Shown: positions 2,041 to 52,820 of the stretch, piece by piece
How positions within the stretch are numbered: position 1 is the stretch's first letter
Layout: the number at the start of each line of letters is the position of its first letter
DNA from: Candidatus Versatilivorator sp.
GTDB taxonomy: Bacteria; Acidobacteriota; Terriglobia; Versatilivoradales; Versatilivoraceae
NCBI GenBank assembly: GCA_965207735.1
Contig: OZ242296.1
Coordinates: 288,001-352,000, forward strand
Reading direction: 5' to 3'
DNA length: 64,000 nucleotides
The notes under the pieces: generated by a model
What the model was told of the DNA's origin: nothing
The model's database searches: none
What the model saw: the letters and a program-made list of their open reading frames with translations, nothing else
Made by a program: the position numbers and the translations under genes

Positions 2041-5000
2041 ATGACAAACAGCAAGAAGACGCTTACGTGGCTGTCAGTCCTGATTCTGACAGGTCTGGGT
2101 ATCTCGGTCAGTCCCCATGAGGTCCTGACCCGGACGTCCGAGGTTGAGAGGGCTCTGAATTCGGTCCTGTCCAGCTATGAAGTGATCCGGATGGAACCCG
2201 GTGAAACCGAGCGGAAGATTCGTGCGACCGGAGAACTGAGATTCCGGTTCGATGGGACCGATTTTCATTTCAATCTCAATCCGCACAATATGCGGGCTCC
2301 CGGCTACAAAGCGGTGGAGACGGGTCCCGGAGGGGTAAGGCGCACGCTTCCCCCTCCGCCGGTGCATACCTTCAAGGGAACGCTGGCGGGGCGGGAAGAC
2401 ACCGAAGGCCGATTCAACCTCACCGGCCGCGGCCTCGAGGGAGTCGTCTATGCTCCTCAGGGGTGGATATACCTCGAACCCTTGCGCAACCGCCTTGCCG
2501 GCAGCCCGGCCGGTGAAATGGTGGTCTACCGACAGGCGGACATCAGGCCGGGCGAAGGCTTTCAGTGCGGCGTGTCGCTGCCGAACCGCCTGCAGCGCGG
2601 GGTGGCCCGGGTCGAGGCTCGAACGCAAGCAATCACCCTCACTACCAACTACGTTTTTAATGTCGCGACCGAAGCTGATTACGAATACGTGCAGGCATTG
2701 GGAGATTCCGAAGAGGCCAACCGTGAGATTGAGGGGATCCTGAACCAAGTGGAGGGAGTTTATCAGAGCGAGCTGTTGCTGCAACTGCAGATCAGTTTCC
2801 AGCACGCCTGGGATATGGAGGACGATCCCTACACGGCAACAAACGCTAACGACCTGTTGGATGAGTTTATTGAATATTGGAACGACAACTTTGCGGCTGA
2901 ACAAGACTACGACGTTGCCCATATTTGGACGGACAGGGAGCGAACCGATCTCGGCATTAGCGGACTAGCCGAACTTGCGGTTGTCTGCAAAGCACGTTCC
3001 AGAAGTTACGCTCTGTCTTCTCGCAAGGTTGTTATACCGGAGAAGTACACCACTCCCGCCCATGAAATCGGGCACAACTTCTCAGCCACTCACCCCAACG
3101 AGCAAGACCCTCCCATCGCAGGCTGCACCAACACGATCATGGCGCAATACACTTTTTTCCTAAAGGACCTGGACAAGTCTTTAACATTCTGTGACTTCAC
3201 TCGGGAGGAAATTAGTACCCACGTCGTCGGCAATAACAGTTGCCTGACAACTCAACCCATCACCCTGCAAGCGCCGACCGGCCTGTCGGCAACAGCGGCG
3301 TCCACGTCTCAAGTTGATCTGAGTTGGGATGACAACAGCACCAATGAAACGGGGTTCGAGGTGTGGTACCGCCTGGACGGATCGGCAGACTGGGTTGAAC
3401 TCGGCGCCACGGCAGCCGACGCCACCACATTCTCGCAGGGAGGGTTGTTGGCAGGTGCGACCTACCGCTACCGTGTACGGGCCTTCAATGAGACGGAATC
3501 GTCCGCTTTCTCCAGCGAAGCCGTGGGGACGACCGAGGCTGGGGAGGGAACCGGGGCCGAATGGAGAATCGAAACGATTGCCGGTGGGGGAATAGGGGAC
3601 AACGGTCCGGCGACCGAGGCACGGCTGGTCCTTCCCCGGGGGGTGGCAGTCGACGCCTCGGGCAATCTCTACATTGGCGATTCCAAGAACCACCGGGTTC
3701 GTAAGGTGGATACCTCGGGAACCATCACCACCATCGCAGGGACCGGGGAGGAAGGATACAGCGGGGACGGCGGTCAGGCGGTCGATGTGCAACTGGACTC
3801 TCCCGCTGGTGTAGCAGTGGACGGGTTCGGAAATCTCTACATTGCCGATTCCGGGAACCACCGCGTTCGCAAGGTGGATACCTCGGGAACCATCACCACC
3901 ATCGCAGGGACCGGGGAGGAAGGATACAGCGGGGACGGCGATCAGGCGGTCGATGCGCAACTGGACTCTCCCGCTGGTGTAGCAGTGGACGGGTCCGGAA
4001 ATCTCTACATCGTTGATCTCGGCAACCACCGCATCCGCCGGGTGGATACCTCGGGAACCATCAACACGATTGCAGGGACCGGAGAGGCAGGCGATGGCGG
4101 GGACGGGGGGGCGGCGGTCGATGCGCAACTGTATTGGCCCCGTGGTGTGGCTGTGGACGGCTCGGGCAACCTCTACATCGCCGATAGAAATAACCACCGG
4201 ATACGGAAGGTGGATTCCTTGGGGACCATCACCACCATCGCGGGAACCGGAGTGAAAGGCTTCAGCGGAGACGGTGGTCAGGCGGTCGCGGCACAGATTG
4301 GCTTTCCTTCGAGTGTAACGGTAGACGCAGCCGGCAACCTATACATTTCTGGTGACAACCGAATCCGGCAAGTGGATGTTTCCGGGACTATCACCACGAA
4401 AGCGGGGACCGGGAATTCGGGTTCTAATCTCGGAGATGGCGGCCCGGCTGTACAGGCGTCGTTGTCCATTCCCGAGGGTGTGGCGGTGGATGGCTCGGGA
4501 AACCTCTATATCGCTGGCTGGCTCAATAATCGCATCCGCCGCGTGGATACCTCAGGGACCATCACCACCGTGGTGGGGATGGGTGAGACAGGTTACGGCG
4601 GAGACGGTAAATTGGCGGTAGAGGCTTACCTAAGCTATCCGACTGGTGTGACGGTGGACGGATCGGGCAACGTCTACATCGCCGATAGCCAAAACCACCG
4701 GATCCGTAAGGTAGATACCTCTGGCACCATTACCACCTTCGCAGGAACCGGAGAGAGAGGCTACAGCGGGGACGGCAGCCCGCCGGTCGATGCGCAATTG
4801 AACTATCCCTCTGGTGTAGCAGTGGACGGGGACGGAAATCTCTACATCGCCGATCGGGGCAACCGACGGGTTCGCCGTGTGGATGCCGGGGGTACTATCA
4901 CCACCGTTGCAGGCACCGGCCAGTATGGCTCCAGCGGGGACGGGGGCTTGGCGGCCAACGCTCGGCTTGTCGCTCCTTTGAGCGTGGCAGTAGACGGAAC

Positions 5001-52800: not shown

Positions 52801-52820
52801 ACCTGCCGGCGAGGGAGTAG
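46866..52820 (+). CDS. Secreted 1984-aa protein: SwmB-like head, cadherin-like, FN3, Ig-like stalk, 'ARE' module
   Basis: Signal-like RFAGVLLVLAALLALPVPTKA; the exact start is uncertain. Stalk and C-terminus are near-identical to the genes at 2041 and 30788. Confidence 0.88.
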   Translation: MPPLHRNEGSLRLASTLSSANLPTPALGIRFAGVLLVLAALLALPVPTKAQTEDTVRPTLVSARTDGSNIILTFSEEVFLSPLVRYVQELYNVPFNYFVRPVFDVTINGHQAFLNDGYSLSGTELTLFSAYTIYSDDEVRIAYNNIFAQNAGGVFVDAAGNTVPYFSSTTVQNNAESGTSSVTAGLVLNTGETDPSEITIEEGSSGTFTIALASQPSEDVTVKVSAFIGVRISTDELTFTPEDWDTPQTVTIFTTSDGDSIDAWAIVWSFIDGDSHSFRFVKILVDDQDTPLVVSGGASTDYAENDTSAVATYSVADGGTETVFWRLLGHDKSAFSLSQAGELTFKTPPDYESPADSSGDNLYQVTIHASKGSSTGALLDVAVNVTDVEPPSAPDAPTVSLIPGVPDSLDVSWDAPDNTDSYDLQYREAAGGSWNDGTQNQTGTSATITGLDGDTSYQVQVRASNDEGDSPWSDAGTGQTYAPPTVSSLAISSDPGTDRTYALGDEIQVTVTFSETVEVTGTPQLRLELGGGRRTAAYEGGSGSVDLVFAYEVADGDSDMADGVGVEADSLSLNGGTIRDTSDNPAGLDHDGLTANASHKVDGVRPELASAGGAVATGTTLRLTYDELLDGSSTPESGDFTMSGGDHARMVTGVGLSGSTVVLTLDVGAEHGEAGIRVSYTPGTNPLRDVAGNEAAALSLKSVTNETPDPTAPLTLETMTMEEAPVSGPFAVRFSFSEEVTVFSGSEIETGQDPMCRDELNNTVFCDPGIGGLQTGDNRVFTTTVTPSIDRVDHSYTLTLTVPGDAVRSSVGNKPNEKGMLEVRVSPPGAPEPISTLSLAANGSNESVRMSWNRPSDNGGSPIIRYEYRYAAIGEAWSEWENVGAGSSGVTVGGLINGREYVIEARAVNALGKGGVETVMATPVAGGGNGSGGGGGGGGGGGLLFAPEAPAVLTATPGDGAVRLGWSPPASDGGAEILRYEYRLKEGLGEVGEWTPIPDSAPGEVNASGYTLMGLLNGTVYALELRAVNQIGNGRETEAVEAVMALDPAYRSNFRAEDLEGGEAGLEWTPFGGSRRSLKVRFGGGLRFVESELDTAGEVTATRMGSYRYRYTSQRTGELSLDYDGGETCELRMSFSGVGAGSYSYRCGGALQGQGSFRLSELNRRPEITSPGQFEVVENQAKVVRLEAVDSDEGDEVAGYGIAGGADAALFRVVEETGELSFTEAPDYERPADAVSAEPESPAGDNEYVVVVEARSGEGERVRRRSRTIRVRVSDEEEPPGAVPAPEVTAEGTDSLTVSWSEPENRGPEITGYEVRYREEGEEGYRDGGHEGTGLRLTLTGLEEERLYRVEVRAMNEEGRGEWSQPGEGRTGMDEPDAEDPADFSEEDLEGRRATLRITGEEGTARRIELRFAEGNRFEQIERVEAQAAIRSESADSRSESTTSRTGAYTYERTGPRKGRLGLDYDDGSSCEVSLTFTELGEGRFVYDCGEGEVAAGSFRLTTGSPFVPVILSSAGRNNSFFTSELTLTNRGMEEATLHYIYTADAGGGSGTATDRIDAGRQKIETDALDYLRGLGVPIPATGNRIGTLRVEVKLGSEVEAVVRTTTLVPEGRAGLAYLGVAEEEGFSEPVYLCGLRQNSQDRSNVAFQNMGTSEEGAITLRTTVYSGEAADAMARMLDDVTLEPGGFHQYSGLLGSVENGYVKVERVEGEAPFYAYGVINDQANSDGSFVFPVTASSLTGTTRQTLPVIVETGEFRSELTVTNFSEEPRRLEFEFVGEQVKTDDKTVAFSMELEAGEQAIVPEVVEELRRQGVAGLGTSRGFYLGPLFVVAEEGDLSGIVIGARTGSKGGGGQYSVFYNAVPEGEAFEKEAWVDGLQQNEENRSNLALVNTGEIDDSASIFHLEIYNGETGMLEETVVTKPIPARGWHQIDGILLRANPETRQGYIRIEKVSGENPFLAYGVVNDGGAPGERSGDGAYLPARE
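51384..52820 (+). repeat. 'ARE' module, last copy
   Basis: 1437 bp, near-identical to the other full copies. Confidence 0.95.

Follow-up and report, generated by a model that had tools for sequence, protein, structure and literature searches.

Giant surface-protein genes with unrelated heads and a predicted envelope-anchor module in Candidatus Versatilivorator

The genome of Candidatus Versatilivorator sp. (Acidobacteriota; Terriglobia) is available as one 5.26-Mb contig without N (GenBank OZ242296.1), of which a window of 64,000 nucleotides (positions 288,001 to 352,000) was analysed here; coordinates are counted from the first letter of this window unless marked as genome positions. On the reading to which we give somewhat more than an even chance, the window holds an island of giant surface-protein genes that arose by tandem amplification and has partly decayed, in which unrelated heads are joined to a common stalk and to a terminal tetrad of ASRAH-like domains that anchors the proteins in the envelope, in which the tails recombine with one another, and in which the operator before the genes is likely bound by a regulator.

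Five long loci follow one another on the + strand: A (2041–11649), B (12836–30208), C (30788–40111), D (43294–46083) and E (46866–52820). That they form a tandem series of exoprotein genes, as the original prediction from the bare sequence had claimed, was borne out by self-comparison and by the open reading frames, and so was its statement that four of them (A, C, D and E) end in the same module, their last 1.1–1.45 kb being common at 92–95% DNA identity. A promoter core of ~95 bp stands, again as predicted, before four genes (B, C, D and E), and the tail set and the promoter set overlap in three genes only. The repeats were confirmed, and the repeat unit is larger and more decayed than had been noted.

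Gene A encodes 3202 residues with a reprolysin-type metzincin (motif HEIGHNFSATH), NHL propellers, a stalk of SWM, FN3 and cadherin domains and the terminal module (10201–11649, + strand), which consists of four beta-sandwich domains arranged as (AB)2 with a predicted ASRAH-like fold and is likely an envelope anchor. Gene C (3107 residues) has a spondin, cadherin and ASST-like head, then stalk and tetrad, and gene E (1984 residues) a short head with a weak SWM match, cadherin and FN3, likewise followed by stalk and tetrad. Gene D is broken: SWM and the start of an S8-like protease, so assigned via homology to two paralogues that match Peptidase_S8, are followed by a tetrad that lacks its first quarter, with a frameshift in a G8 run (44487–44494) and an out-of-frame fusion near 44960 by which most of the protease and the entire stalk were lost. 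Gene B encodes a Calx-beta repeat protein of 5790 residues without tetrad and with an outer-membrane-barrel-like end (OMP_b-brl E 0.002, below cut-off; last residue Trp). The unrelated heads of the original prediction were confirmed. The set is not confined to the window: the module has 40 matches genome-wide, and a sixth array member lies just outside it on the left. The G8 run was rejected as a designed site of phase variation, since the break in other broken paralogues is at a short run or a nonsense codon.

The terminal tetrad module

The module comprises ~475 residues. Modelled with AlphaFold from an alignment of 126 rows it folds into four beta-sandwiches (predicted local distance difference test, pLDDT, 95.8; predicted template modelling score, pTM, 0.92) and is all-beta to the last residue; from the single sequence the pLDDT was only 34. 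Profile comparison gave the order (AB)2, domain D1 resembling D3 (probability 99.3) and D2 resembling D4 (probability 99.9). In a fold search, model residues 228–354 matched TM1070 (1NC7) with Z 11.5 and a root-mean-square deviation of 2.6 over 106 aligned residues; ASRT (2II7) came next (Z 7.7–8.0) and unrelated chains reached 6.8–7.0. Foldseek with the whole module model returned just multi-Ig matches of low TM-score. The ASRAH Asn that closes strand 2 is found in all four domains (N19 in 125/126 rows, N139 in 106/126, N253 in 126/126 and N380 in 123/126). The ASRAH Trp that opens strand 1 is present in domain 4 (W362, 125/126), is replaced by a mostly aromatic position in domain 2 (Y95, F17, W3) and has no counterpart in domain 3, while the first strand of domain 1 is partly outside the alignment used for this check. 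Pfam, NCBIfam (no family at E ≤ 1) and PDB sequences gave no match to the module, and a feature similarity of 0.94 between it and DUF5719/ASRT clusters can serve as no more than a lead. The ASRAH superfamily was defined, secreted tetrads were reported and sugar binding was predicted by De Souza, Iyer and Aravind in 2009 (PMC2739507). An ASRAH-like tetrad fold is predicted for the module from its model, and the binding of glycans or sugars is predicted in line with the same proposal.

The module belongs to a family of bacteria rather than to the window. The source genome has 40 matches, fragments included, and the ~40 module-bearing genes make up 3.7% of it; Pfam assigns LRR, NHL, reprolysin, sulfatase, M9 collagenase, S8, trypsin, spondin and GSDH among the 31 heads scanned. 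It is present in 18/18 genomes of the same family (6 to at least 52 matches each), in 0/12 genomes from different families of the class and in 2/200 genomes across the phylum. Tetrad genes also stand on contigs of two metagenome-assembled genomes (MAGs) labelled Acidimicrobiia (L055, L064, L063, L066), those of L055 and L064 being almost identical to copies of the congener G009, which points either to misbinning or to a transfer of very recent date. In the other five genera of the family the listed reading frames with the module are below 1,900 residues; giant stalks therefore look specific to the genus. A short gene of TIG domain plus tetrad (L022; L165:9557–11446) is single-copy and 71–86% conserved in most congeners, 10 of the 12 with a match; it heads a cytochrome c7/TPR cluster and is possibly a housekeeping client of the module.

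A representative protein library yielded 2,241 module matches (885 at E ≤ 1e-30). Among the best 150 representatives the module is C-terminal in 122, N-terminal in 21, internal in 6 and the whole protein in 1. A strict C-terminal sorting signal was rejected because of these N-terminal and internal cases. Neither a transmembrane (TM) helix with basic tail nor a match to a curated NCBIfam sorting-signal model (E ≤ 1) was found at the module end. Since the module is also found N-terminally, it is likely an envelope anchor rather than a cleaved sorting signal. The N-terminal leaders are hydrophobic as judged by eye, GspE and GspG score above cut-off and the genome has three secretins, from which export by Sec and then passage through a type II secretion system (T2SS) would follow. 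Anchoring would be non-covalent, the rigid (AB)2 tetrad on ~40 proteins binding an envelope glycan in the way proposed for secreted ASRAH tetrads.

The same T2SS genes would also fit a tetrad that is an export tag and not an anchor, read by the T2SS or by a dedicated outer-membrane translocon in the manner of the C-terminal domain (CTD) of the type IX secretion system (T9SS). Such a tag would suit a module that is attached to almost all types of exported protein without a barrel of their own, the longest having 4,845 residues, that gives way to a barrel-like end in gene B, and whose extreme end is strongly conserved. However, the N-terminal and internal cases speak against it, a tag of 475 residues would be a large one, the fold match is to a predicted small-molecule binder, and no partner gene was seen adjoining the module. 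We therefore think an export tag possible but unlikely. Much less probable still is that the tetrads self-assemble into an S-layer-like lattice with the heads projecting. The rigidity of the four-domain body in the model and the conservation of the short-headed single copy in most congeners would agree with a lattice; but this core copy stands first in a cytochrome c7/TPR cluster, and a single tetrad is by itself equivalent to the full tetramer, for which TM1070 needs four chains.

Recombining tails and travelling heads

Comparison of the 12 long-stalk genes indicates that tails are exchanged between genes with different heads by ordinary recombination, i.e., that they are under concerted evolution. 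In 46 of the 66 pairs the identical tract is beyond all 1,000 permutations, and PHI-type (pairwise homoplasy index) tests gave 0/300 for the 12 genes and 0/2,000 for the four-fold sites of nine of them. For example, C and a sulfatase gene at a distance of 630 kb have tails that are 99.4% identical in amino acids, with an identical tract of 1,245 bp, whereas C and its own same-head paralogue reach 90.2% and 123 bp. In a protein tree of 123 modules made with FastTree most long-stalk tails of the source genome cluster together and not with the same-head genes of congeners (support 85), and holding same-head genes together was rejected by approximately unbiased (AU) tests (p 9e-78, 0.01 and 0.013). 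The array copies differ by 5–16% in a mosaic pattern. In this respect the original prediction of a constant stalk and tail with variable heads, diversified by recombination, has held up. Homologous recombination and gene conversion within the 1.4–5.8 kb of common DNA could generate such mosaics, and the same process may join new heads to tails and also delete genes and regulators.

A programmed switching of heads behind one expression site, of the shufflon or antigenic-variation type, would likewise make use of promoters and tails common to several genes, and an X8 contig (9,632 bp) that tracks 46015–46743 and then diverges looks as if another gene followed the promoter. Against this, each gene has a promoter of its own, the positions of the head-stalk junctions differ from gene to gene, all genes of the array point in the same direction without inverted arms at the junctions (self-comparison), and a scan of 19 window proteins showed no recombinase. 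There is no sign of programmed switching, which we hold to be very unlikely.

Heads, on the other hand, occur with other tails, as public metagenomes show. In G024, a genome of another family, regulator-promoter DNA is 87–91% identical to units of G009, and the S8 head, 84% identical over 5 kb, has a different terminal module. Homologues matching the full head of C are 63–81% identical; in the best 120 of 553 homologues the tail is the tetrad in 3, a second repeat type in 27, class 2 in 38, class 4 in 4, class 3 in 3, one of the smaller classes in 8, and truncated or unclassified in 37. Among the best 120 of 269 S8-head homologues, 41 have the tetrad, 21, 7, 5, 4 and 1 belong to other classes, and 41 are unclassified. 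Seven alternative tails that were tested had no match in the source genome, and their profiles resemble the four domains of the module weakly (best probability 21%). Tail class 2 was found in 0/401 and class 4 in 1/401 Acidobacteriota genomes, counts that show little, no positive being known; a scan of metagenome loci with head C gave one weak match. These combinations suggest that the heads are likely a common pool of surface enzymes and adhesins which each lineage re-anchors in its own way: heads would move between lineages and be spliced onto the recipient's own module.

Further C-terminal modules (last 200–300 residues) without Pfam family, and as such candidate anchors of other lineages, were seen in P0312, P0362, P0284, P0281, P0318, P0452 and P0368. 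The second repeat module, which ends the S8 gene of G024, occurs in the source genome at genome positions 1528349, 4023699, 4005989, 735410, 5003407 and 1080576, often N-terminally.

A mobile regulator and its operator

Three of the shared promoters had been described as divergent from a copy of the same hybrid regulator. The promoters of B, C and D indeed face regulator DNA, of which one copy is intact, the gene at 40216–42573 (− strand). It encodes a one-chain regulator of 785 residues with GAF, PAS, HisKA, HATPase, REC and OmpR-type winged-helix domains (Trans_reg_C E 1e-23). The copy at 11754–12524 (− strand) retains GAF and lacks an internal ~1.6 kb that encoded the kinase, the receiver and a portion of the winged helix, the junction being near 11920; this deleted form is also seen in the short-read contigs X1/X2, with just 26 bases on the short side. 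At 30227–30475 (− strand) a scar of ~250 bp is left, in which the start is fused to the 3' part and ~2 kb are deleted; strains from two other studies (X3, X8) have a longer regulator piece and the promoter joined directly to head C. The 3' part of an intact distant paralogue (785 residues, 69% identical to the 40216 copy) occupies 3–1313 on the + strand, starting left of the window behind insertion sequence (IS) remnants; it is on the same strand as gene A and not divergent from it. That the regulator-promoter unit was duplicated together with the genes is supported.

The promoter core occurs exactly four times in the genome, each time in the array: 12596–12715 before B, 30547–30652 before C, 42645–42764 before D and 46627–46746, without regulator, before E (all + strand). 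It contains phased TCA[CT] half-sites, at 12612, 12633 and 12644 before B (TATAGT at 12658), at 30552, 30563, 30584 and 30595 before C (TATAGT at 30609), at 42661, 42682 and 42693 before D (TATAGT at 42707), and at 46632, 46643, 46664 and 46675 before E (TATAGT at 46689). At C and E the four half-sites are spaced 11/21/11 bp and the last one is 14 bp before TATAGT. An operator-like box at 1505–1554 (+ strand) before gene A, with a position weight matrix score of 13.1, belongs to another promoter variant with no regulator left on the far side.

The exact promoter sequence of the window was not found in 13 congeners; its half-site phasing alone is common. In 42 regulator-upstream regions (the non-redundant set out of 55) TCA[CT] pairs at 11, 21 and 32 bp occur 20, 13 and 27 times, as compared with 0.4–0.5 expected after shuffling and with 0.25, 0.58 and 0.14 for actual intergenic DNA. 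When the window promoter was left out of the matrix, boxes were still scored before A to E and before the sixth gene left of the window. A box or a divergent regulator is found at 11/15 long-stalk genes, 2/22 short ones (three fragments omitted) and 25/1,167 background genes. With a winged-helix output domain and direct-repeat boxes phased at 11 bp by the promoter, both features of an OmpR/PhoB-type system are present, and the phased box is likely the operator bound by the neighbouring hybrid regulator. The winged helix would activate the divergent gene, and the one intact regulator would serve the orphan operators in trans.

The regulator is found in 12/13 congeners, 0/5 genomes of other genera and 1/12 of other families; the tail, present in all 18 family genomes, is therefore older. 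Module and regulator do co-occur in relatives, whereas their adjacency is patchy: 6/44 regulator starts, counted in 40 regions taken for 50 matches, face a tetrad gene (5/9 in G009, 1/4 in G012 and 0/30 in nine other congeners; three with little flanking DNA). One inherited clade of regulator plus exoprotein was rejected, the eight linked regulators tested not being one clade (p 5e-10) and needing 6 changes on the tree. From the patchy link together with this polyphyly it appears that a mobile regulator-operator was paired with tetrad genes several times, i.e., that the regulator is a mobile unit and not a fixed part of the display system. The one fixed three-part system of the original prediction is not supported on these counts, and likewise because the tail is family-wide and also N-terminal and because two of the three local regulators and gene D are broken.

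It should be considered whether regulator and operator are hitch-hikers, a mobile unit that captures any divergent gene and is copied passively by tandem duplication, with no co-regulation today. Two of the three local regulator copies are deleted, 38/44 regulator starts in relatives face other genes, and the tree just mentioned is what capture would produce. Nevertheless, C and E have kept half-sites and TATAGT whole and correctly phased after the loss of the regulator, boxes are enriched at long-stalk genes, and the pairing has arisen repeatedly and independently in the source genome, G009, G012 and G024. Hitch-hiking alone seems to us a minority prospect. Our verdict is a modular surface-display repertoire under concerted evolution which came repeatedly under the control of a mobile regulator whose operator can be defined; that its anchor likely binds glycan we consider a little better than an even bet.

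Several points weigh against this reading. Export, binding, localisation and regulation are all predicted from sequence or model. The strong fold match comes from one domain, residues 228–354, the one searched alone; the ASRAH Trp is retained in one of four domains; and the Pfam models ASRT PF07100 and DUF5719 PF18986 match 0/93 module members and none of the genome's modules. Three of the 11 operator matches have a promoter present in the training set, one stands beside an IS end, and the gene copies are kin, not independent. In nine other congeners 0/30 regulator starts face a tetrad gene, and genomes with 45–52 modules have none adjacent to a regulator, so that regulation by this regulator is not needed. 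The second module type is common to the source genome and another family, and tails are therefore not strictly lineage-specific; the other tail families had no assignable taxon by cluster look-up (Atlas match under 0.9).

The island and its relation to known systems

The array occupies an island of 65 kb between rpiB, outside the window, and an M3 oligopeptidase gene (54870–56597, + strand), the left and right core flanks. In 11/13 congeners the two genes are 0.17–2.4 kb apart (one in another orientation), and in G005 and G009 they are 8 and 28 kb apart, each time with a regulator of the same family. The site in G009 (L167–L168) also contains a tetrad gene, together with two remnants of regulators and an RHS-repeat gene that a transposase interrupts. 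The sixth array member, just left of the window (L002:1252-6357; genome positions 278252–283357), has reprolysin, NHL, TIG and a short-class tetrad, is interrupted by an in-frame TAG, and has a strong operator box and IS remnants after it. A second, decayed tandem lies at L035:4498-6380 (genome positions 2128498–2130380), where an internally deleted copy of gene C directly precedes a paralogue of gene A. Between D and E a small open reading frame (46185–46568, + strand), helix-turn-helix-like by eye and without family above cut-off, has homologues adjoining regulator copies in L113–L116, L140 and L147, and its 5' end is also found after the sulfatase tetrad gene. An MpaB/Lcp-like oxygenase gene (53144–54343) lies between gene E and the core flank; the rest of the genome contains a single paralogue and a single fragment of it. 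Within gene B, 25957–28107 holds about six 360-bp repeats of 98.5–99.4% identity and 684-bp repeats of 78–84%, likely a length-variable region and an assembly hazard.

Misassembly of repeats as the origin of the array can hardly be credited. No read or contig covers the whole array and one pair of tails is near-identical; but the copies diverge in a mosaic manner, tandem units exist in other genomes as well (L143, L136), and unique junction regions match short-read contigs exactly. The matches without difference to X1/X2 (28500–30256, 41366–42012, 42712–44990, 46191–46697 and 46671–48900) include the frameshift of gene D; X1/X2 is one sample, probably the source sample and hence not independent. 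One sequencing run containing window DNA is labelled sponge metagenome, which together with the closest module records, Ca. Versatilivorator and Terriglobia MAGs, makes it likely that the host is a sponge symbiont belonging to this genus. No RNA dataset containing window DNA is among the listed runs.

SLH, CWB2 and dockerin are non-covalent anchor modules, each of them found on numerous secreted enzymes and at either terminus; the module here has an unrelated fold, and its ligand is predicted only. The T9SS CTD, PEP-CTERM, GlyGly-CTERM and TIGR03437 of Solibacter likewise give tens of paralogues in one genome the same C-terminus; the module differs from them in having no NCBIfam match at E ≤ 1 and no TM tail and in occurring also N-terminally and internally. 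In the bab adhesin paralogues of H. pylori stalks are homogenised by recombination and heads are old and divergent, whereas here heads are also enzymes, the regulator-operator travels along and tails differ between lineages. Polymorphic toxins recombine on a constant scaffold. A reversed toxin system, to which the array had been likened, was rejected, the variable part being N-terminal and the Pfam heads being proteases, sulfatases and repeats; with opposite polarity and no toxin tips, immunity genes or silent tip cassettes seen, it is an analogy only.

The closest likeness, which removes the claim that the system is undescribed in kind, is to the secreted ASRAH tetrads, alike in fold (TM1070 1NC7, ASRT 2II7), strand-2 Asn, four copies per exported chain and proposed binding of envelope sugars (PMC2739507). 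Those tetrads are always fused to an amidase and come from Chloroflexi, and the main text of that paper, as available, does not mention Acidobacteria; the tetrad of the source genome differs in having dozens of unrelated heads and no Pfam match. The available part of PMC10947273 holds nothing on the module. Anchor type and concerted evolution are thus of known kinds; the phased operator, the scale in the family and the pool of heads with swapped tails were not found in the literature searched, the operator being new here.

In sponge symbionts NHL, LRR, cadherin and FN3 domains are enriched and laterally transferred, and Acidobacteriota are rich in them (PMC8163846, part of the text); no common display module is named there for these eukaryote-like proteins. 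Few lineages have classical secretion systems according to the same part of that source, which bears on how such proteins reach the outside of the cell. Tentatively, and with well under even confidence, we propose that sponge symbionts share a community-wide plug-in display, in which a mobile regulator, operator and head-stalk gene would be spliced onto the recipient's module, the tetrad being the module of this family and supplying its eukaryote-like proteins with the means, so far missing, of leaving the cell and staying on its surface. One foldable module of 475 residues on ~40 genes offers a handle on binding, retention and export, the operator is a concrete predicted site for an unstudied family of one-chain regulators, and one head with several unrelated tails opens a route to finding the anchor modules of other lineages.

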